A DNA stretch of 64,000 nt from an uncultured Anaerolineaceae bacterium (GCA_964438865.1 CAYTMI010000015.1:1-64000), one strand, 5' to 3'; counted from the first letter of the stretch, positions 2,836 to 39,743 are shown. The notes: generated by a model from the letters alone, not told the origin. Made by a program: numbers and translations.

Positions 2836-3123
2836 ATGTCACGCTCTATCAAGAAGGGCCCCTTCGTCCACCCTTCGCTCGAGAAGAAGATCTTCTCGCT
2901 GCGTAATGCCAGCCCGAAGCCGTTGATCAAGACCTGGTCGCGGGCTTCGACCATCCTGCCAGACATGATCGGCTTCACGATCGGCGTGCATGACGGGCGG
3001 CGTCACGTGCCCGTGTTCATCACGGAAAACATGGTCGGCCACAAGCTCGGCGAGTTCGCCCTGACCCGGACCTTCCGCGGTCACATCTCCAAGAGCGACC
3101 GGCAGAGCAAGGTGAGGCGCTGA
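2836..3123 (+). CDS. rpsS: 30S ribosomal protein S19
   Basis: 95 aa, [11 protein letters not shown]... and GHKLGEFA motif. Confidence 0.95.
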
Positions 3124-3125
3124 CC

Positions 3126-3464
3126 ATGGAAGTTCGAGCCTCGGCCCGTGACCTGGGCACATCTTCGCGGAAGATCCGCCTCATCCTCGAACGGCTGCCG
3201 GGGCTGAGCGTGGACCAGGCGCTTTCGCTGCTTCGCTACGTACAGTCGCCGCACGCGCGGTCGGTTTCCAAGGTTGTCCTTTCGGCCGCTTCGAACGCCG
3301 AAAACAACTTCGACATAGACGTGGACGACCTCGTCATCAAGCGGGCTTTTGCCGACGAAGGGCGCACTCAGAAGCGCTTCCGTCCCCGTTCGCGGGGACG
3401 CGTCAGCCCGATCCTGAAGCGGTCCACCCACATCACCATCATCCTCGACGAACGGGGGGCGTAA
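3126..3464 (+). CDS. rplV: 50S ribosomal protein L22
   Basis: 112 aa; follows S19 in the operon with an L22-like sequence. Confidence 0.92.
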   Translation: MEVRASARDLGTSSRKIRLILERLPGLSVDQALSLLRYVQSPHARSVSKVVLSAASNAENNFDIDVDDLVIKRAFADEGRTQKRFRPRSRGRVSPILKRSTHITIILDERGA

Positions 3465-3467
3465 GAC

Positions 3468-4274
3468 ATGGGACAGAAGGTACACCCCCACGGTTTCAGG
3501 TTGGGGATCATCTACGACTGGGAGTCCAAGTGGTTCGCGGAACGTGACTACACGACGCGGCTCCACCAGGACCTCGACCTCCGCGCCTTCGTGCTGCGGG
3601 AACTGCCCGACGCGAGCATCAGCCATGTGGAGATCGACCGGAACGCGAACCTGGTCACGATCACCATCCACACGGCCAAGCCGGGGATCGTCATCGGGCG
3701 CGGCGGGCAGAAGGTGGAAGAGCTTCGGAATTCGCTGGAGCGCCACACCGGCGGCCGGGTCCGCTTGAACATCCAGGAGATTCGCACCCCGGAACTCGAC
3801 GCCTACCTGGTGGCGCGTTCGGTTGCGGACCAGCTGGAGCGCCGCGTCGCCTTCCGTCGCGCGGTCAAGCAGTCGGTCCAGCGGACCATGCAGCGGGGCG
3901 CCCTCGGAGTCCGCGTTGCTGTCGCCGGGCGCCTTGGCGGGGCCGAAATGTCCCGTCGCGAATCGGAGACATCCGGCCGGGTGCCGCGGCACACGCTGCG
4001 GGCCAACATCGATTACGGGCTCGCGGAAGCGCACACGACCTTCGGGAGCATCGGCGTGAAGGTCTGGATCTACAAGGGGGACATCCTGCGGGAGGTCCGC
4101 CAGGAGCGCGTCGTGGCTGAAGAGCCGGCCGAGGCGCATGCCCCCGCTGCTCGCCTGGCAGCCGAAACCACGGCTGCGGAAGCGGCGGCGATGGCAGCGG
4201 CCCCTGGCCACACTGCGATCACGATGGAACAGCAGGCTGCCGTGCAGCGCGAAGCCCAAGAAGGGGGCGAGTAG
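3468..4274 (+). CDS. rpsC: 30S ribosomal protein S3 (with Ala/Glu-rich C-terminal tail)
   Basis: 268 aa, [13 protein letters not shown]... and [10 protein letters not shown] (KH domain) motifs. Confidence 0.95.
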
Positions 4275-32278: not shown

Positions 32279-33679
32279 ATGGCATTTCCCGCTGCCCTCG
32301 AACGCCTTCCCCCGCATGACATCGAAGCCGAAGAGGCCGTCATCGCGGCGCTCCTCGTGGATGTGGAAGCGCTGCACAAGGTGCTGCCCATCCTCAAGCC
32401 CCAGGACTTCTTCCGCGAGAAGAACGGCTGGGTGTACGAATCCTGCCTCGCACTGTGGAACCGCGACGAAGCCGTAAACCAGATCACGGTCGCCCATGAG
32501 CTTGCCCGCCACGACCGGTTGGAGGACACGGGCGGCCAGACGTATCTCGCTGAGGTCATCCGCCGGCTGCCGACCAGCCTCGGGGTCGAGTTCTATGCCC
32601 GGCTCGTCAAGCGCGACGCGACCTACCGGGGCCTCATCCACGCGGCCACCGGCATCCTCCAGATGGCCTACGAGGCCCCGCCGGAGATCGAGCACGTTTT
32701 CACCCGCGCCGAAGACCTGATCCAGCGTCTCCGGGGCGGCGAGAACTTCCGCGACTTCGTCCACATCAGCCAACTCCTCTCGGCCTACCTCGAAGAGGAC
32801 GCGGAGACCTTCGAGCGCAAGCAGCTCTCCGCCATCCAGACGGGCTTCACCGACCTCGACGCCCTGCTCGGCGGCTTGAAGCGCTCAGACCTCGCGATCA
32901 TCGGCGCCCGGCCGAGCGTCGGGAAGTCGAGCTTCGCGCTCGGCATCGCCCGGAACGCGGCGGTGAGCCAGCGCGCCAACGTCGCTTTCTTTTCGCTGGA
33001 AATGAGCGGCGAGCAACTGGCCGTGCGTCTGCTCTCCGCCGAAGCCAACGTGGAAGCGACGCGACTTCGCCTCGGCACCCAGACCGAACTGGAGGAGCGC
33101 CGGATCATCCGGGCCACCGGCGAACTCTCCGAAGCCAACATCTGGTTCGACGACTCCCCGGTGCTGACCGTGGCCGAACTGCGGGCGAAAGCGCGTCGCC
33201 TGGCCATGCGCCAGAACGGCCTCGACCTGATCGTGATCGACTACCTCCAGCTCATGCACGGGGAGGGGATCCCCGGCCGGGAGAACCGCGTCCAGGAGAT
33301 CAGCTACATCTCGCGCACGTTGAAGAGCCTGGCTCGCGAGTTGGACGTGCCGATCATCGCCCTTGCCCAGCTTTCTCGCGCAATCGAAAACCGTCACCCG
33401 CGGACGCCGATGCTGTCCGACCTCCGGGATTCGGGCTCCATCGAACAGGACGCTGACGTGGTGATGTTCCTCAGCCGCGAAGAGCTCTATGTGTCGCTTG
33501 AGCAGTGGATGGCCTCGCACGAAGACATGCCCGCCGCTGCCTACCCCAAGGGCGTTGCCCAGGTGATCGTCGCGAAGCACCGCAACGGCCCCATCGGCAA
33601 CGTGGAGCTTCGTTTCCGCGACCGGATCGCAAAGTTCGAAGACTGGACGCTCAGGCGGGATGGACCACCCGATGACTGA
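32279..33679 (+). CDS. dnaB: Replicative DNA helicase DnaB
   Basis: 466 aa. N-terminal domain (IEAEEAVIAALL), Walker A GARPSVGKSSFAL, Walker B LIVIDYLQLM, and arginine finger region. Confidence 0.95.
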   Translation: MAFPAALERLPPHDIEAEEAVIAALLVDVEALHKVLPILKPQDFFREKNGWVYESCLALWNRDEAVNQITVAHELARHDRLEDTGGQTYLAEVIRRLPTSLGVEFYARLVKRDATYRGLIHAATGILQMAYEAPPEIEHVFTRAEDLIQRLRGGENFRDFVHISQLLSAYLEEDAETFERKQLSAIQTGFTDLDALLGGLKRSDLAIIGARPSVGKSSFALGIARNAAVSQRANVAFFSLEMSGEQLAVRLLSAEANVEATRLRLGTQTELEERRIIRATGELSEANIWFDDSPVLTVAELRAKARRLAMRQNGLDLIVIDYLQLMHGEGIPGRENRVQEISYISRTLKSLARELDVPIIALAQLSRAIENRHPRTPMLSDLRDSGSIEQDADVVMFLSREELYVSLEQWMASHEDMPAAAYPKGVAQVIVAKHRNGPIGNVELRFRDRIAKFEDWTLRRDGPPDD

Positions 33680-34385
33680 CGCAGGCTTCGCCGGGTTCCC
33701 GGGCGTGTCGAAAGCGACGGCCATTCCCAACGTCTTCTTCGCGGCCGTCCTCCCGGAAATGCGTTCGCCGGCGGCGCTCCTGGCGTTCCTCTGGGTCGCT
33801 CGTATCGTCCAGGAACAGAAGGGCGAGTCGCGCTTCGTGACGGAGGAACAGATCTGGGCGTGCGAGGGCACTGCCGCCTCGTTCGAAGCGATCGGCGGGG
33901 GCCGGCGGGGCCTTGGCGAAGGGCTCTCTCAGTGTGCTGCCCTTGGCGCGCTCCTGCCGTTGCGTCTCTCTGGCCCGGGCGGCGAAGAGACCGTGTACTT
34001 CGTCAACAACCCCGGGTCGCAGCGTGCTGTGGGCCGGGCGCGGGCTGGCGAGCTTCGCCTGAAGGCGGAGACGGTGGCGGTTGCGGTCGCCAGCGAATCC
34101 CGCCCCGGCATCTTCCGCATGTACGAAGAGAACATCGGGACGATCACACCGATGGTGGGCGAACGCCTCTTGCATGCGGCCGAAACCTACCCCGCGGAAT
34201 GGGTGGAAGAAGCCTTCCGCGAAGCGGCGGAACTGAACAAGCGCAGCTGGCGCTACGTTGAGCGCATTCTCCAGAAGTGGGCCGAGGAGGGCCGCGGCAA
34301 TGAAGGACCTGAAGGAGATTCTTTCGAAGATCGCAAGCGGCGCTACCTCGGGGGACAGCTCGGGCACGTTGTCCGCTATCGCTGA
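33660..34385 (+). CDS. DnaD-domain replication initiation/membrane-attachment-like protein
   Basis: 241 aa; C-terminal DnaD/DnaB_2 signature (KRSWRYVERILQKWAEEG, the YxxxIxxxW motif). The start may instead be the ATG at 33672; overlaps the dnaB 3' end. Confidence 0.65.
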   Translation: MDHPMTDAGFAGFPGVSKATAIPNVFFAAVLPEMRSPAALLAFLWVARIVQEQKGESRFVTEEQIWACEGTAASFEAIGGGRRGLGEGLSQCAALGALLPLRLSGPGGEETVYFVNNPGSQRAVGRARAGELRLKAETVAVAVASESRPGIFRMYEENIGTITPMVGERLLHAAETYPAEWVEEAFREAAELNKRSWRYVERILQKWAEEGRGNEGPEGDSFEDRKRRYLGGQLGHVVRYR

Positions 34386-35697
34386 CGAACCGGAGCCCGG
34401 CGTCTGCCCGATCTGCCGGGGCGCAGGCTTCGTCCGGCGGCCGCGACCGGTGGACCATCCCCGTTTCGGGAAAGCGGAGCCCTGCGAGTGCGTCCTTGAC
34501 GAAGCAGAGGATGTCCGGCGGACGCGGCTCGAACGGCTGAGCAACCTCGGCGCCCTGACGCGGTTCACCTTCGACACGCTTTCACCGCTCGGACGGCACG
34601 GTGACAACCCGTGGTGCGAACGGGCGACGGCCGTTGCCCGCGACTTCGCTGCCTCGCCAGCGGGCTGGCTCGTGCTGAGCGGTCCTAGCGGCAGCGGAAA
34701 GACACACATCGCCGCGGCGATCGCCAACGACCGCATCGCCCGGGGAGAGCCCGCGCTCTTCATGGTGGTCTCCGACCTCCTGGACCACCTTCGCGCCAGC
34801 TACGAGGCGGCGGTCGACGAACTCGACTACGATGCGATGTTCGACCAGGTGCGGAACGCCCCCTTGCTGATCCTGGACGACATCGACGCCGTTTCACCGA
34901 CTCCGTGGGCCAACGAGAAGCTCCACCAGGTGGTGAACCACCGCTACAACGCCCAACTGCCGACCGTGTTCACCTGCGCGGTGCGGCCCTCCGCCCTCGA
35001 CCGGCGGCTGGCAACCCGCCTGGCCGACGACAGCGTTTCCACGATCGTCCTGCTGGAAGGCGGAGGCCAGGCAACCTACCGGCAGGTGGGAGGGATGACG
35101 CGCGAGCGGCTGGCGGAGATGCAGTTCCGTGACTTCGACCTCCGCGGCGCAGGGCTCCAGCCGGAGGAGCGGGAGTCGCTCGAAGCAGCATTCCGTGCCT
35201 CGCAAGCCTACGCGGACCATCCGGATCGCTGGTTCACGCTCCAGGGGGTGAACGGGTGTGGAAAGACGCACCTGGCGGCGGCGATCGCGAACAAGGTGCT
35301 CACCAACGGGGGAGAGGTCTTCTTCGCCGTCGTCCCCGACCTCCTGGACCACCTCCGCGCGTCCTTCGCGCCGACGAAGGATGTGGGGTACGACGAACTC
35401 TTCGAACAGGTCCGCAACGCGCCCCTGCTGGTGCTGGACGACCTTGGCGCGCAGGCGTCGTCCCCGTGGGCACAGGAGAAGCTCTACCAGATCGTGAACT
35501 ACCGGACGGTCTCGGCGTTGCCGACAGTGGTCACCACCGACCAGCAACTGGACCAGCTTTCGGGCGCGCACCCCCGGATCGTCGCGCGCATCGCCGACCC
35601 GCATGCGGGCTCGGTCATTGCCATCCTGTCGCCGCATTACCGTTTGGGGCGGATGGTCGAACAGCGGGGGAACCCGCCGCCGCGGCGGGGCCGTTAG
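34300..35697 (+). CDS. Tandem-duplicated DnaC/DnaI-like AAA+ helicase-loader protein with N-terminal Cys4 zinc ribbon
   Basis: 465 aa from the ATG at 34300. Zinc ribbon CPICRGAGF...CEC. AAA+ module 1: Walker A GPSGSGKTHIAAAIAN, Walker B LLILDDID. AAA+ module 2: Walker A GVNGCGKTHLAAAIAN, Walker B LLVLDDLG. Each module is followed by ..PWA.EKL.Q.VN.RY. Overlaps the 3' end of the DnaD-like gene in another frame. Confidence 0.8.
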   Translation: MKDLKEILSKIASGATSGDSSGTLSAIADEPEPGVCPICRGAGFVRRPRPVDHPRFGKAEPCECVLDEAEDVRRTRLERLSNLGALTRFTFDTLSPLGRHGDNPWCERATAVARDFAASPAGWLVLSGPSGSGKTHIAAAIANDRIARGEPALFMVVSDLLDHLRASYEAAVDELDYDAMFDQVRNAPLLILDDIDAVSPTPWANEKLHQVVNHRYNAQLPTVFTCAVRPSALDRRLATRLADDSVSTIVLLEGGGQATYRQVGGMTRERLAEMQFRDFDLRGAGLQPEERESLEAAFRASQAYADHPDRWFTLQGVNGCGKTHLAAAIANKVLTNGGEVFFAVVPDLLDHLRASFAPTKDVGYDELFEQVRNAPLLVLDDLGAQASSPWAQEKLYQIVNYRTVSALPTVVTTDQQLDQLSGAHPRIVARIADPHAGSVIAILSPHYRLGRMVEQRGNPPPRRGR

Positions 35698-36179
35698 GCG
35701 CGGAGGCGGCGCGCCACCCAGTCGCGCAGGGCCCGTTCCGTGCTGTCGAACGCGATCTCGTCCCAGGGGATCTCGTGCGGAGCGAACCAGCCGATTTCGC
35801 TGGTTTCGTGCCCGGCCGAGCCTTCGCCATCCGCCACGGCTTCGTAGACGATGACGACGACCCCGGGCTCGATGCGCGTGTAGACGCCGAGCAGTTCGAG
35901 GCTCCCGACCGCCAGGTTCGCCTCCTCGAGCGTTTCGCGCATGGCGGCTTCCTCGGCAGTCTCGCCGACGTCCATGTACCCGCCGGGGAACACCCAGAGC
36001 CCGCGCCGCGGTTCGATTGCGCGGCGCACCAGCAGGCAGGCGCCGTCTTCGCGGACCGGGATGGTGCCCGCGACCGGCCGCGGATTCAGGTAGTGGACGA
36101 AGCCGCAGTCGATGCAGACAAGGCGCCGTTTGGTGTCGCCTTCCGGCACGGCGGAAGTCAGCCGCTGGCCGCAATGCAT
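35694..36179 (-). CDS. NUDIX hydrolase with N-terminal zinc ribbon (NudC-like)
   Basis: 161 aa from the ATG at 36179. C-x2-C...C-x2-C (CMHCGQ...CIDCG), then a Nudix box (GGYMDVGETAEEAAMRETLEEANL). Its stop overlaps the convergent DnaC-like stop. Confidence 0.75.
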   Translation of the reverse strand: MHCGQRLTSAVPEGDTKRRLVCIDCGFVHYLNPRPVAGTIPVREDGACLLVRRAIEPRRGLWVFPGGYMDVGETAEEAAMRETLEEANLAVGSLELLGVYTRIEPGVVVIVYEAVADGEGSAGHETSEIGWFAPHEIPWDEIAFDSTERALRDWVARRLRA

Positions 36180-36216
36180 GCAATACCGGCTGAAGGAATG
36201 CGGGTGGTTCGCCACG

Positions 36217-36666
36217 TCAGCGCATGCCCGCGGGTGCCTGCTGGATGCCCAGCGATTCCGGCCCTTCGATCCAGGCCTCGCCGTCTTCCCAGACTTCCTT
36301 CTTCCAGACGGGGACCCGTTTCTTGATTTCGTTGACCAGCCAGTGGCCGCCTTCGAAGGATTCGGCCCGGTGCCCGCTGCTGACGGCAATCAGGAGGCTT
36401 GTTTCGCCCAGTTCCAGGCGGCCCGTCCGGTGGAGAACCGCGCAGTCGAGCAGCCCGAATCGGTCCTTCGCTTCCGCGGCAATTTCGCGCATGACCTTTT
36501 CGGCCATCGCCGGGTAGGCGTCGTAGACGAGGTGGTCGACGCGGCGGCCGAGGTTGTTGTCGCGCACGTTCCCGAGGAAAACGTTGACGGCGCCAGCTGC
36601 GTTTGTTTCGACGGCGGCCACCGCCTCGGCGATGTTGAGCGGTGTTTCGGTGACACGAATGAGCAA
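36217..36666 (-). CDS. moaE: Molybdopterin synthase catalytic subunit MoaE
   Basis: 149 aa; MoaE fold motifs (GAVNVFLGNVRD, IAVSSGHR); sits downstream of the moaD-like gene. Confidence 0.8.
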   Translation of the reverse strand: MLIRVTETPLNIAEAVAAVETNAAGAVNVFLGNVRDNNLGRRVDHLVYDAYPAMAEKVMREIAAEAKDRFGLLDCAVLHRTGRLELGETSLLIAVSSGHRAESFEGGHWLVNEIKKRVPVWKKEVWEDGEAWIEGPESLGIQQAPAGMR

Positions 36667-36670
36667 GGAG

Positions 36671-36916
36671 CTAACCCCCGGAGACAGGCGGGATAAGGGC
36701 GAGGGTGGCCCCGGCGGGCACCGGCGCCGATGGTTTCACATACTCTTCGTCCACCGCGAACAGCAGCGAGGGCCGGAAGCGCGCAAGCTGCGGGTGGGCG
36801 GCCATCAGGCGGTCGCAGACGGTCTCCACCGTGTCGCCCGGGGCCGACTGCAGTTCGAGACGGCGTTGGCCAGCGGCGTCGGCCACTGAAGCGAAGAGGA
36901 GGATGGTGACGGTCAC
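36671..36916 (-). CDS. moaD: MoaD/ThiS-family sulfur carrier protein (C-terminal GG)
   Basis: 81 aa from the GTG at 36916; ends ...ALIPPVSGG*. The six-frame ORF 36671..37366 over-extends upstream. Confidence 0.7.
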   Translation of the reverse strand: MTVTILLFASVADAAGQRRLELQSAPGDTVETVCDRLMAAHPQLARFRPSLLFAVDEEYVKPSAPVPAGATLALIPPVSGG

Positions 36917-36948
36917 CCCCCAATTGTAGCCCACCCGCGGCCCGCCAC

Positions 36949-37707
36949 TTGCGAGGACAGCAGAAGAGGCGTGGAATAGCGGCCGTGACCGGCCCGTTCG
37001 TCGGAAGAATGCTGGGCGTCGCGCTCGACCTTGCTTACCCGCCGCGGTGCGTGGGCTGCGCCTGCTTCGGCACGCTTCTTTGCGACTCCTGCCGGGGTGG
37101 CCTTGCCCCGGCGACGGGTCCGGGCCGGTGTCCGAACTGTTCGGCGGCCTGGACCGAGCCTCTGAACTGCCCTCGCTGTCAGTCGTGGGGCGCCCTCGAC
37201 GGCTGCGTCGCCGCATTCGAGATGGAAGGCGTCGCCCGGCGGCTGGTCCACGCCCTGAAGTACGAATACGTGACGGCGGCGGCACCGCTGATGTCGGCCG
37301 AAATGGAACGGCTCCGGGCCAGCCCGAAGTCCTTCGATGTCGCGGTGGCTGTGCCGCTTCACGCATCGCGCCAGCGGCGCCGGGGCTTCAACCAGGCGGG
37401 GCAGATCCTCGGGAACCTGGAGTGGGCACCCCTCCCGGGACGCCTGGTCCGGGGACGAAAGACGCACCAGCAAGTTGGCCTGGGCCACCGCGACCGCCGG
37501 GCCAACGTTTCCGGGGCGTTCGACTATTCGGGCGATCGCCTGGAGGGGTTGGTTGTGGGACTCGTCGATGACGTGGTCACGACCGGGGCGACGGCGAACG
37601 AGTGCGCGCGGGTGCTGAAGGAGCACGGAGCCCGGGAGGTGGTGGCGGTGGCCTTCGCCCGGGCCAGCTTCGACCTCTCGCGGCCGGATGTGCCGATCGT
37701 CGACTGA
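36949..37707 (+). CDS. ComF-family phosphoribosyltransferase (competence protein F-like)
   Basis: Two N-terminal Cys pairs (CVGCA...CDSC; CPNC...CPRC) and a C-terminal PRTase motif (VGLVDDVVTTGATANE). The start may be the ATG at 37009. Confidence 0.75.
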   Translation: MRGQQKRRGIAAVTGPFVGRMLGVALDLAYPPRCVGCACFGTLLCDSCRGGLAPATGPGRCPNCSAAWTEPLNCPRCQSWGALDGCVAAFEMEGVARRLVHALKYEYVTAAAPLMSAEMERLRASPKSFDVAVAVPLHASRQRRRGFNQAGQILGNLEWAPLPGRLVRGRKTHQQVGLGHRDRRANVSGAFDYSGDRLEGLVVGLVDDVVTTGATANECARVLKEHGAREVVAVAFARASFDLSRPDVPIVD

Positions 37708-37801: not shown

Positions 37802-38791
37802 TTGGTCGCCGGCGCACCCGTGCTCACCCCCCAGGCCGCCCGAGCGGCGGACCTCCTCGCCCGTGTGCGCGCCGAAGTCCACCGCGTCATCGTTGGGCAG
37901 GACCTGCTCATCGACCGGTTGCTCATCGGCCTGTTGTGCAACGGCCACGTGCTGGTCGAAGGCGTCCCAGGGCTGGCGAAGACCCTGACCGTCTCCAGCC
38001 TCTCCGCGTCGCTCAACCTCAAGGGCGTCCGCATCCAGTTCACGCCCGACCTACTCCCGGCGGACCTCGTCGGCACGGAAGTGTTCAGCCCCGCGGACGG
38101 CGCGTTCACCGTGCGGAAGGGCCCTATCTTTGCGAATATCGTGCTCGCTGACGAAATCAACCGCGCACCCGCGAAGGTGCAGTCGGCCCTCCTGGAGGCG
38201 ATGCAGGAACGCCAGGTGAGCATCGGCGGCGAGACCTTCCCCCTCGATGAGCCGTTCCTCGTCATGGCCACCCAGAACCCCATCGAGCAAGAAGGCACCT
38301 ATCCTTTGCCCGAAGCACAGCTGGACCGGTTCCTCCTGAAGGTGCGGGTGGACTACCCATCGCGCCAGGAGGAACGCCAGATCCTGGAAATGGGGCTGAA
38401 CGGGACGGCGCCGCGCCCCCGGCCCGTCGCATCGCGCGACGACCTGCTCGCCGCCCGGGAGGCGCTGCACGACGTCGCGATCGACGACGCGTTGAAGGAG
38501 TACATCGTCCAGGTGGTCTTCGCCACCCGCCGGCCGGCCGCCTACCGCCTGCCCGAACTCCAGCCGCTGATCGCCTTCGGAGCGTCGCCGCGCGCGACGA
38601 TTGCCCTCGCCCAGGCCTGCCGCGCCCACGCGTTCCTCCAGGGCCGGCCCTACGCGACTCCAGACGACGTCAAGGCGCTCGCTCACGACGTCCTCCGCCA
38701 CCGGATTGTCACCACCTACGAAGCGGAAGCGGAGGAACTGACCACCGACGACCTCATCGACCGGGTGCTCGAAAGCGTGGAGATCCCGTAA
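37802..38791 (+). CDS. MoxR-like AAA+ ATPase
   Basis: 329 aa; Walker A GVPGLAKT, Walker B VLADEINRA, and the typical MoxR C-terminal region. Confidence 0.88.
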   Translation: MVAGAPVLTPQAARAADLLARVRAEVHRVIVGQDLLIDRLLIGLLCNGHVLVEGVPGLAKTLTVSSLSASLNLKGVRIQFTPDLLPADLVGTEVFSPADGAFTVRKGPIFANIVLADEINRAPAKVQSALLEAMQERQVSIGGETFPLDEPFLVMATQNPIEQEGTYPLPEAQLDRFLLKVRVDYPSRQEERQILEMGLNGTAPRPRPVASRDDLLAAREALHDVAIDDALKEYIVQVVFATRRPAAYRLPELQPLIAFGASPRATIALAQACRAHAFLQGRPYATPDDVKALAHDVLRHRIVTTYEAEAEELTTDDLIDRVLESVEIP

Positions 38792-38807
38792 CCGGGATGG
38801 TGCCGAG

Positions 38808-39743
38808 ATGAGGGCCTGGCGGAGGCGAGCGGCCGCGAAGGAGACCAGCGAGGAGTCGCGGCAGATCCCGCGGGAGATGTTCGAACGCGTCCGGGCGATC
38901 GAGATCAAGGCCCGGCGGCTGGTCAATGACCTCTTCCTCGGCGAATACCACGCCGTCTTCCGTGGGCGCGGGCTGGAGTTCGACGAGCTCCGCCTCTATG
39001 TCCCGGGTGACGACGTTCGCTCCATCGACTGGAAGACGTTCGCCCGCACCGGCCAGCCGTTCATGCGCCGCTACCGGGAAGACCGCGACCTCACGGTCAT
39101 CTTCGTAGTCGACGTGAGCGCGTCGCAGGCGGCGGGTTCCCTGCCTTCGACGAAGGCTGACCTGGCGGCGGAGCTCTGTGCCGTCCTCGCGCTCGCGGCC
39201 ATCCGGAACAAGGACAAAGTCGGCCTCCTCCTGTTCGCGAGCCAGCCCGAACGCTACGTGCGCCCGGCTGGGGGGCCGACGCATGTCTTGAGGGTCGTGC
39301 GCGAGGTGCTCTGGGCCCGGCCGGCCTCCCGGGGGACGGACATCGGGGCGGCGATGGAGTACCTCACGGGGGTCCAGAAGCGCCGGGCGACCGTGTTCCT
39401 GGTGTCTGATTTCCTGACCGACGGATACCAGCGGCCGTTGCGCGCGGCAGCCCGCCGCCACGACATCATCGCCGTCCGCATCCGCGAGCCGATTGACTCC
39501 GAACTCCCCGACGCGGGGATTGTCACCGTCGCCGATGCCGAAACGGGCGCGCCAGTTGAGGTGGACACGGGCAGTGCCGCGGTCCGCGCAGCCTACGCCC
39601 GCCAGGTGAAGGAGACGGACTTCGAACGCCGCCGGCTCTTTGGCGAACTCGGGATCGACGAAATCCCGGTGAGCGTGGGCAAGGACTACGTCCCGGCGCT
39701 GCTGAAGTTCTTCAAGCGCCGGGCGATGGCGGTGGCCTCGTGA
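38808..39743 (+). CDS. DUF58 domain protein (VWA-like partner of MoxR)
   Basis: 311 aa; GEYHAVFRGRGLEFDELRLYVPGDDVRSIDWK, the DUF58 signature. Confidence 0.85.
   Translation: MRAWRRRAAAKETSEESRQIPREMFERVRAIEIKARRLVNDLFLGEYHAVFRGRGLEFDELRLYVPGDDVRSIDWKTFARTGQPFMRRYREDRDLTVIFVVDVSASQAAGSLPSTKADLAAELCAVLALAAIRNKDKVGLLLFASQPERYVRPAGGPTHVLRVVREVLWARPASRGTDIGAAMEYLTGVQKRRATVFLVSDFLTDGYQRPLRAAARRHDIIAVRIREPIDSELPDAGIVTVADAETGAPVEVDTGSAAVRAAYARQVKETDFERRRLFGELGIDEIPVSVGKDYVPALLKFFKRRAMAVAS

Follow-up and report, generated by a model that had tools for sequence, protein, structure and literature searches.

A chromosomal dnaB operon of Chloroflexota encodes a DnaD-like protein and a putative helicase loader with two AAA+ modules

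Introduction

To our knowledge, all mechanistic models of bacterial AAA+ helicase loaders derive from single-module proteins (Escherichia coli and Aquifex DnaC; Bacillus, Staphylococcus and Geobacillus DnaI), six protomers of which sit on the replicative helicase DnaB. We describe here an operon within a 64,000-nucleotide stretch of DNA (the window; G+C ~67%) from an uncultured Anaerolineaceae bacterium (GCA_964438865.1, CAYTMI010000015.1:1-64000). In this operon dnaB is followed by genes for a DnaD-like protein and for a 465-residue DnaC/DnaI-type loader that carries two complete AAA+ modules in one chain.

An eLife study of DnaC depicts both DnaC and DnaI as a single AAA+ fold joined to a single helicase-binding domain. 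In DnaI the ATPase is preceded by an N-terminal domain that contacts the helicase and depends on zinc (PMC1636449, PMC2673437). In Clostridioides difficile the 38-kDa loader is monomeric and assembles with its helicase into a 6:6 complex (PMC5204125). Loader genes in Firmicutes may lie beside genes for proteins with DDBH2 domains, whose signature is the motif YxxxIxxxW (PMC2978336). Examples are dnaB-dnaI of B. subtilis and CD3653-CD3654 of C. difficile, the latter near the helicase gene CD3657 (PMC5204125). For the Chloroflexi, Brézellec et al. (2016) inferred that a dna[CI] gene of phage origin had been domesticated once (PMC5109545). Every Chloroflexi genome in the passages of their Supplementary Data 1 that we consulted has at least one AAA^CI gene and zero dciA (PMC5109545).

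The loader in the window departs from these proteins in its number of modules. DnaI has one AAA+ module per chain, and so has the clostridial loader CD3654 (~38 kDa, 6:6), whereas two are found here. DnaC functions as six separate protomers with one helicase-binding and one AAA+ domain each; in the present protein two AAA+ modules share one N-terminal domain.

Results

The loader gene (34300-35697; on the plus strand, like rplI, dnaB and the DnaD-like gene) matched the Pfam family PF01695 (IstB_IS21) in two stretches (E 3.7e-27). Two stretches were also matched by phrog_50 ('DnaC-like helicase loader') of PHROG and by the best NCBIfam model, the subfamily model PRK08116 (204.8 bits against a cutoff of 189, passed only when the scores of both modules were summed). 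Module 1 spans residues ~70-262 (34507-35085) and contains the Walker A motif GPSGSGKT (residues 128-135, 34681-34704) and the Walker B motif LLILDD (residues 189-194, 34864-34881). A linker and module 2 follow (residues ~263-452, 35086-35655), with Walker A as GVNGCGKT (residues 316-323, 35245-35268) and Walker B as LLVLDD (residues 376-381, 35425-35442). The initial annotation of this stretch, made by a model from the sequence, had proposed a tandem loader with intact Walker motifs in each module, encoded behind rplI, dnaB and a DnaD-like gene. Open reading frames and profile matches confirmed this gene set, including the expected IstB_IS21/DnaC matches in both loader halves and DnaB_2/DnaD in the neighbour. 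Profile, structure and synteny all agreed with this gene set and with a covalently duplicated loader behind an N-terminal Cys4 motif.

The closest solved sequences were Geobacillus DnaI (2w58), E. coli DnaC (6qel), Aquifex DnaC (3ecc), B. subtilis DnaI (4m4w) and S. aureus DnaI (5he8). Of these, 4m4w aligned to residues 123-235 in module 1, and 2w58, 6qel and 3ecc to residues 310-441 in module 2. An AlphaFold2 model of the loader, built on a 58-sequence alignment, had a mean predicted local distance difference test score (pLDDT) of 79.6, with values of ~85-95 in the modules; residues 1-33 were disordered. Its predicted template modelling score (pTM) of 0.49 makes the relative placement of the two modules unreliable. 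For single modules, the best structural match by Foldseek was Aquifex DnaC 3ecc, with a template modelling score (TM) of 0.81 and a root-mean-square deviation (rmsd) of 2.6 Å. DnaI 2w58 followed at TM 0.77-0.78, and S. aureus DnaI 5he8, IstB and E. coli DnaC 6qel were matched as well. Both halves are predicted to have the AAA+ loader fold of the DnaC/DnaI/IstB clade, like DnaC (6qel, 3ecc) and the B. subtilis and Geobacillus DnaI proteins (4m4w, 2w58). The concern that the second half might have another fold was not borne out: each half was loader-like by profile and by Foldseek.

The two modules share 45% protein identity over 150 residues (BLASTP E 8e-41), well above what chance would give, and 60% identity at the DNA level. 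The repeat is real and ancient and no assembly artefact, because the modules are only this similar. Hundreds of independent assemblies contain the same architecture. A sequencing or assembly duplication, which near-identical DNA halves would have indicated, was rejected on both grounds.

Upstream of module 1 lies a Cys4 motif, CxxC (residues 36 and 39) followed by CxC (residues 62 and 64; 34405-34491), which we presume to mark the helicase-binding domain. None of the four cysteines varies among 32 diverse and 58 close loader homologues. The initial annotation had called this region a zinc ribbon. That term rests on the four cysteines and on a low-confidence model, with short beta-strands at residues 44-46 and 59-61 and pLDDT ~60-67, and the fold is putative. 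In general plan the arrangement resembles DnaI, in which a metal-type motif, there zinc-dependent, likewise precedes the ATPase. The ligands differ, being Cys3His in DnaI and CxxC...CxC here, and there is no detectable sequence similarity.

ATG 34300 is taken as the true loader start because homologues keep the N-terminus MKxLxEILSK and share the four invariant cysteines. In public data the identical protein (P0001, 415 residues) is called from V51, which drops 34300-34449 and with it the CxxC pair. That start was probably chosen to avoid a long gene overlap, and many of the 400-425-residue loader entries in databases probably share the truncation. The labels of these entries read only 'ATP-binding protein' or 'DnaC'.

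Functional residues were next counted in 32 diverse two-module members, a set chosen for having both Walker A motifs. In this set the Walker A lysines (K134, K322) and Walker B aspartates (D193, D380) were present in 32/32 sequences in both modules, and the second Walker B acidic residue in 26-27 of 32. Reference residues of DnaC, including the single-stranded DNA (ssDNA) tetrad K143, F146, S177 and Y179, were taken from PMC8213410. Equivalents of the tetrad are kept in both modules as R165/R353, Tyr or Phe at 168/356, Thr or Ser at 201/388, and W203/W390. The box VII arginine was found in 29/32 (R240) and 30/32 (R430) sequences. A second arginine four residues upstream (R236, 20/32; R426, 19/32) gives the same i, i+4 spacing as R216/R220 of DnaC. 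The E. coli DnaC sequence used in the MAFFT alignment agreed with the PDB alignment. The MAFFT alignment mis-registers box VII, and columns were inspected directly instead. Walker A, Walker B, the box VII arginine and the ssDNA tetrad are common to DnaC and both modules of the present loader. DnaC has a canonical sensor I asparagine; the window protein is without it in both modules, with Cys226/Ala227 in module 1 and Thr413/Asp414 in module 2.

The modules differ at sensor II. In module 2 the pair Y447 and R448 (35638-35643) is conserved, in 27/32 and 25/32 sequences respectively. In module 1 the arginine R261 was present in only 7/32, yet it is found in the window protein (residues 260-261, 35077-35082). 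A strict regular expression also returned several representatives with a degenerate Walker A in one or the other module. Residue conservation in the 32 sequences suggests that both modules are competent for ATP and DNA binding, yet non-equivalent.

The gene directly upstream of the loader (33672-34385) encodes the 237-residue DnaD-like protein. Its start had been placed at ATG 33660 (241 residues) in the initial annotation; ATG 33672 is probably correct because homologues have 237-238 residues. PF07261 (DnaB_2) matched residues 152-211 (E 2e-11, 43.7 bits against 22), and TIGR01446 (DnaD_dom) scored 46.8 bits against a cutoff of 24.95. No Pfam family matched residues 1-150. PHROG returned phrog_186 ('DnaD-like helicase loader'). 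A profile of the family matched full-length B. subtilis DnaD (8ojj) and the DnaD-domain structures 2zc2 and 2i5u. The AlphaFold2 model (pLDDT 81.8) showed an N-terminal winged helix with a beta-hairpin (pLDDT >90) and a C-terminal helical domain, which corresponds to DDBH2/DnaB_2. Foldseek placed the full-length DnaD model 9a5c_B first (E 1.9e-4) and aligned 2zc2 with TM 0.73 and rmsd 2.3 Å; the match to the DnaD N-terminal domain 2v79 was weak (TM 0.48, E 0.5). The YxxxIxxxW motif occurs as YVERILQKW, with Tyr and Trp invariant in the family. By its DDBH2 domain and motif, the protein is classed as a member of the DDBH family.

A DDBH2 protein encoded directly upstream of the loader is also the arrangement of Bacillus, where dnaB(Bsu)-dnaI is complemented by DnaD. 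Bacillus has both DnaD and DnaB, whereas one DDBH protein was seen here, and unlike in Bacillus the genes directly follow the helicase gene. A DDBH2 protein likewise adjoins the clostridial loader CD3654, of the PRK08116 type, in a helicase region; its neighbour CD3653 is organized as DDBH1-DDBH2-DDBH2, and the DnaD-like protein here has a single DDBH2. We know of no DnaD partner in E. coli. From the position of its gene between dnaB and the loader gene, we infer a partnership of the DnaD-like protein with DnaA and the origin and with the loader and helicase.

Overlaps between these genes had been noted in the initial annotation as a sign of translational coupling. With the start at ATG 33672, dnaB and the DnaD-like gene overlap by 8 nucleotides. 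The DnaD-like and loader genes overlap by 86 nucleotides (34300-34385), a segment in which the loader N-terminus is read out of frame over the C-terminal tail of the DnaD-like protein. Among the 57 related loci with a recognisable loader start, 55 keep the long overlap, with modes of 83 and 86 nucleotides and every length equal to 2 mod 3. A conserved loader helix (MKDLKEILSK here) sits over a less conserved stretch of the DnaD-like tail, and the variable, disordered loader residues 12-33 sit over the conserved DnaD-like C-terminus RRYLGGxLGHxxRYR. This complementary pattern is as expected from true dual coding and suggests that both frames are used. The conserved long overlap is also consistent with coupled expression or translational coupling.

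The distribution of the loader was examined at several levels. The best 120 homologues were 58-100% identical, 100% being the public call of the same protein, and their named sources were Tepidiformaceae, Tepidiforma sp. and Dehalococcoidia. When representatives clustered at 50% identity were searched exhaustively, 587 clusters passed E < 1e-30, and among the top 150 some 90 were two-module proteins of 420-490 residues with 35-50% identity. A search seeded with a Dehalococcoidales-type member returned only proteins of 406-496 residues that covered at least 87% of the two-module query, all derived from metagenome-assembled genomes (MAGs). The only link to a named genus is through three proteins labelled 'Tepidiforma sp.' (P0044, P0061 and P0064).

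A scan of species-representative genomes yielded 513 pattern-matched stretches encoding a loader relative, and synteny was counted in the best 80 of these, in which both modules were covered at 41-74% identity. Almost all carry Chloroflexota labels (Tepidiformaceae, Dehalococcoidia, Dehalococcoidales, Anaerolineae, Ardenticatenaceae), mainly Dehalococcoidia. The order rplI, dnaB, DnaD-like gene, loader was kept in nearly all of these 80 genomes. Only one full-length locus (L022) had no detectable DnaD-like match between dnaB and the loader. The two-module loader is the normal state in a large Chloroflexota clade and no oddity of the window genome. A few operon-bearing contigs (L022, L033) and one protein (P0047) are labelled as Proteobacteria, Acidimicrobiia or Hyphomicrobiales MAGs, which probably reflects mis-binning or mislabelling.

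The initial annotation had suggested looking in relatives for the two modules as separate genes. No separate adjacent module genes were seen; instead, versions with one, two or four modules occupy the same slot. In a Chloroflexota MAG (GCA_027294635.1, locus L083), rplI, dnaB and a DnaB_2 gene are followed by just one loader gene (2849-3694 of that locus), which encodes 281 residues with the Zn motif and one module. This single-module locus also has the long overlap. At another locus (L081), an intein-containing dnaB and a DnaB_2 gene precede an 827-residue loader with four modules and one Cys4 motif (P0121, 6001-8484 of that locus). Its modules are 39-64% identical as protein and 53-65% as DNA, with intact Walker motifs in all four, and the four-module loader was found on two contigs. 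Less trust can be placed in a 792-residue protein with three modules (P0122), in which modules 1 and 2 share 82% identity and for which the only source is one 5.7-kb contig. The context of a further protein (P0250) is uninformative, its contig being short. Module number thus varies (one, two, four) at one fixed operon slot.

In a neighbour-joining tree of p-distances, module 1 sequences mostly lay apart from module 2 sequences, although the tree was poorly resolved and single-module proteins were interspersed. Such a grouping fits a single ancient duplication; the single-module form may be either the ancestral state or the product of a later loss.

The remaining features of the region were as follows. 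An open reading frame check of the window found all four genes at the coordinates reported here. The gene rplI for ribosomal protein L9 (31595-32203; Pfam Ribosomal_L9_N and Ribosomal_L9_C) opens the conserved block and lies 5' of dnaB in most related loci. The replicative helicase gene dnaB (32279-33679, 466 residues) matched TIGR00665 with 489 bits against a cutoff of 385, together with Pfam DnaB and DnaB_C. With the DnaD-like and loader genes these form one overlapping operon among housekeeping genes, its flanks encoding a beta-lactamase-fold protein, an M20 peptidase, NUDIX, MoaE, MoaD/ThiS and MoxR-DUF58 proteins. No mobile-element genes were found among the flanking genes, and neither an IstA transposase nor phage genes lie nearby. 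Scans of the 64-kb window found no tRNA genes and no Rfam families at the gathering threshold.

Downstream, a convergent NUDIX hydrolase gene (35694-36389, minus strand) encodes an N-terminal Zn-ribbon_Nudix domain. Its stop overlaps that of the loader by 4 nucleotides (35694-35697), which leaves no space for an intergenic terminator. Beyond it lie genes for MoaE (36217-36666, minus strand) and a MoaD/ThiS-like protein (36671-36949, minus strand), an open reading frame without a Pfam match (36949-37707) and a MoxR AAA_3 / DUF58-VWA pair (37802-39743).

Discussion

The initial annotation had judged two aspects of this locus unusual. For the covalent tandem loader this holds for the published record that we found, in that a full-text search of the open-access literature returned no account of a helicase loader in tandem or duplicated form, nor of DnaD in Chloroflexi. 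It does not hold within the Chloroflexota clade, where the architecture is normal. Similarly, a DnaD-like gene beside the helicase gene was thought unusual outside the Firmicutes. It is near-universal in the Chloroflexota clade, and the DDBH2-loader neighbours described above are Firmicutes precedents.

To judge from the passages of Brézellec et al. consulted, the loader family is almost certainly the already recognised resident dna[CI] of Chloroflexi and probably the only resident loader of the phylum. The dna[CI] genes reported there very probably belong to the same family. Those parts of the paper and its supplements do not mention the duplicated ATPase, the Cys4 domain, the DnaD-like neighbour or the overlap (PMC5109545). 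The family was known before; for the duplicated architecture and the DnaD-containing operon setting we found no earlier description.

We consider it probable (roughly 0.7) that this is the chromosomal helicase-loading operon of a Tepidiformaceae-like member of the Chloroflexota and that the cognate DnaB loader is built as a covalent AAA+ dimer. DnaB would be co-expressed with a DnaD-type adaptor, which has a winged helix and a DNA-binding DDBH2 domain, and with an AAA+ loader in a roughly fixed ratio, probably through translational coupling at the overlaps. Internal duplication of the ATPase module would have given the order Zn motif, AAA+ module 1, AAA+ module 2. By analogy with the zinc module of DnaI (PMC1636449, PMC2673437), the Cys4 N-terminal domain may dock on DnaB. 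On the model of E. coli DnaC and B. subtilis DnaI, the AAA+ modules would bind ATP and ssDNA and form a head-to-tail spiral that opens or assembles the DnaB ring. Each chain would bring two AAA+ modules already paired, with one ATP site built in between them, and the simplest stoichiometry would be about three chains per DnaB hexamer. Module 2, with its full catalytic set, may be the main hydrolytic site. Module 1, in which the sensor-II arginine is absent from most lineages, may be an ATP- and DNA-binding, arginine-donating partner. The DnaD-like protein would link the complex to the DnaA-bound origin, by analogy with DnaD and DnaB of Firmicutes.

A more detailed proposal is put forward tentatively, and we give it rather less than even odds. 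The loader oligomer would be partly hard-wired, with two (in some lineages four) concatenated modules on a single zinc helicase-binding domain, and about three chains instead of six would load DnaB. The sensor-II-less module 1 and the catalytic module 2 would form an obligatory ATP site within the chain, and expression would be tied to the DnaD-type adaptor by the dual-coding overlap of ~85 nucleotides.

Several observations weigh against these proposals. For the whole loader family, function is predicted from sequence and models. The loader falls below the NCBIfam equivalog cutoffs for DnaI (NF006505, 118.2 against 228) and DnaC (NF005931, 112.6 against 357). The Cys4 region had zero sequence matches to solved structures in the PDB search, helicase-binding domains included, and was modelled at low confidence only. 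We can only infer the intramolecular ATP site because the inter-module geometry is poorly modelled (pTM 0.49), and the alignment leaves the assignment of R236 and R240 as coupler or finger ambiguous. As four does not divide six, the four-module variant casts doubt on a simple count of three chains per hexamer. The absence of dciA is a result of the phylum survey, and the window covers only 64 kb of this genome.

In a rival arrangement, six chains would sit on each hexamer, with one Zn domain per DnaB subunit as in DnaB6-DnaC6. Canonical loaders supply one helicase-binding domain per DnaB subunit in a 6:6 complex (PMC5204125). One module, probably module 2, would then enter the spiral, and the other would form a second tier or point outward to contact a second DnaB hexamer, the DnaD-like protein or the DnaA filament, so that the modules would divide the work and not pair within one spiral. 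The asymmetry of the modules, with a sensor-II arginine family-wide only in module 2, would fit such a division, and four modules per chain are hard to place in a single six-membered spiral. Foldseek did align the whole loader model to p97 and other AAA+ proteins with two tiers, but at an rmsd of ~20 Å these very poor alignments are no evidence for stacking. Both modules also keep the ssDNA tetrad and the box VII arginine, which suggests that both act on DNA in a head-to-tail oligomer, and we regard the six-chain arrangement as unlikely. A functionally single-site loader, in which one module is a degenerate pseudo-ATPase serving as scaffold or regulator, appears distinctly unlikely. Module 1 does lack the sensor-II arginine in 25 of the 32 diverse sequences, and the strict regular expression found a degenerate Walker A in one module of several representatives. 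The corresponding sensor-II substitution in E. coli DnaC, R237D, abolishes its ATPase activity, but that mutant loads DnaB at about the wild-type level (PMC8213410). In the 32 aligned sequences, which were chosen for two Walker A motifs, the invariant Walker A lysine and Walker B aspartate and the DNA-binding residues kept in both modules would be unexpected of a dead domain.

It is highly improbable that the protein is no replication loader at all, being instead an IS21 IstB-type helper or part of a prophage replication module that lies near dnaB by chance. The best Pfam family is named IstB_IS21, and IS21 IstB (5bq5, 8q4d) shares PF01695 and a related AAA+ fold. The strongest PHROG matches are to phage DnaC-like and DnaD-like loaders, and dna[CI] genes are thought to have been domesticated from phage (PMC5109545). 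These PHROG matches fit a phage-derived module of DnaD-like and DnaC-like proteins that has become resident. Unlike IS21 IstB, the loader has no IstA partner and falls below the equivalog cutoff of the IS21 helper model (NF038214, 122 bits against 200). Its neighbours are M20 peptidase, NUDIX, MoaE/MoaD and MoxR genes rather than phage genes. The slot after rplI-dnaB is conserved across the best-80 species, at identities of 41-74%, which indicates residency and not mobility. A mobile element was rejected on score, neighbours and conserved synteny.

The hard-wired oligomer, if correct, would make this an asymmetric loader found in nature that differs in stoichiometry and ATPase logic from every characterised DnaB6-DnaC6 or DnaI6 system. 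A covalent, asymmetric loader would be of moderate to good interest to specialists in replication. In a natural covalent dimer, the ATP sites, arginine fingers and DNA patches could be separated by mutation of one module, which is impossible in homo-oligomers. It would also raise the question of whether opening or assembly of the DnaB ring truly requires six helicase-binding domains. Annotation is affected too, as public calls label these loaders 'ATP-binding protein' and sometimes lose the Cys4 N-terminus owing to the long overlap. For the clade itself, the operon would document a DnaD-type adaptor and a loader as the standard initiation toolkit of a major group outside the Firmicutes, including the environmentally important Dehalococcoidia.

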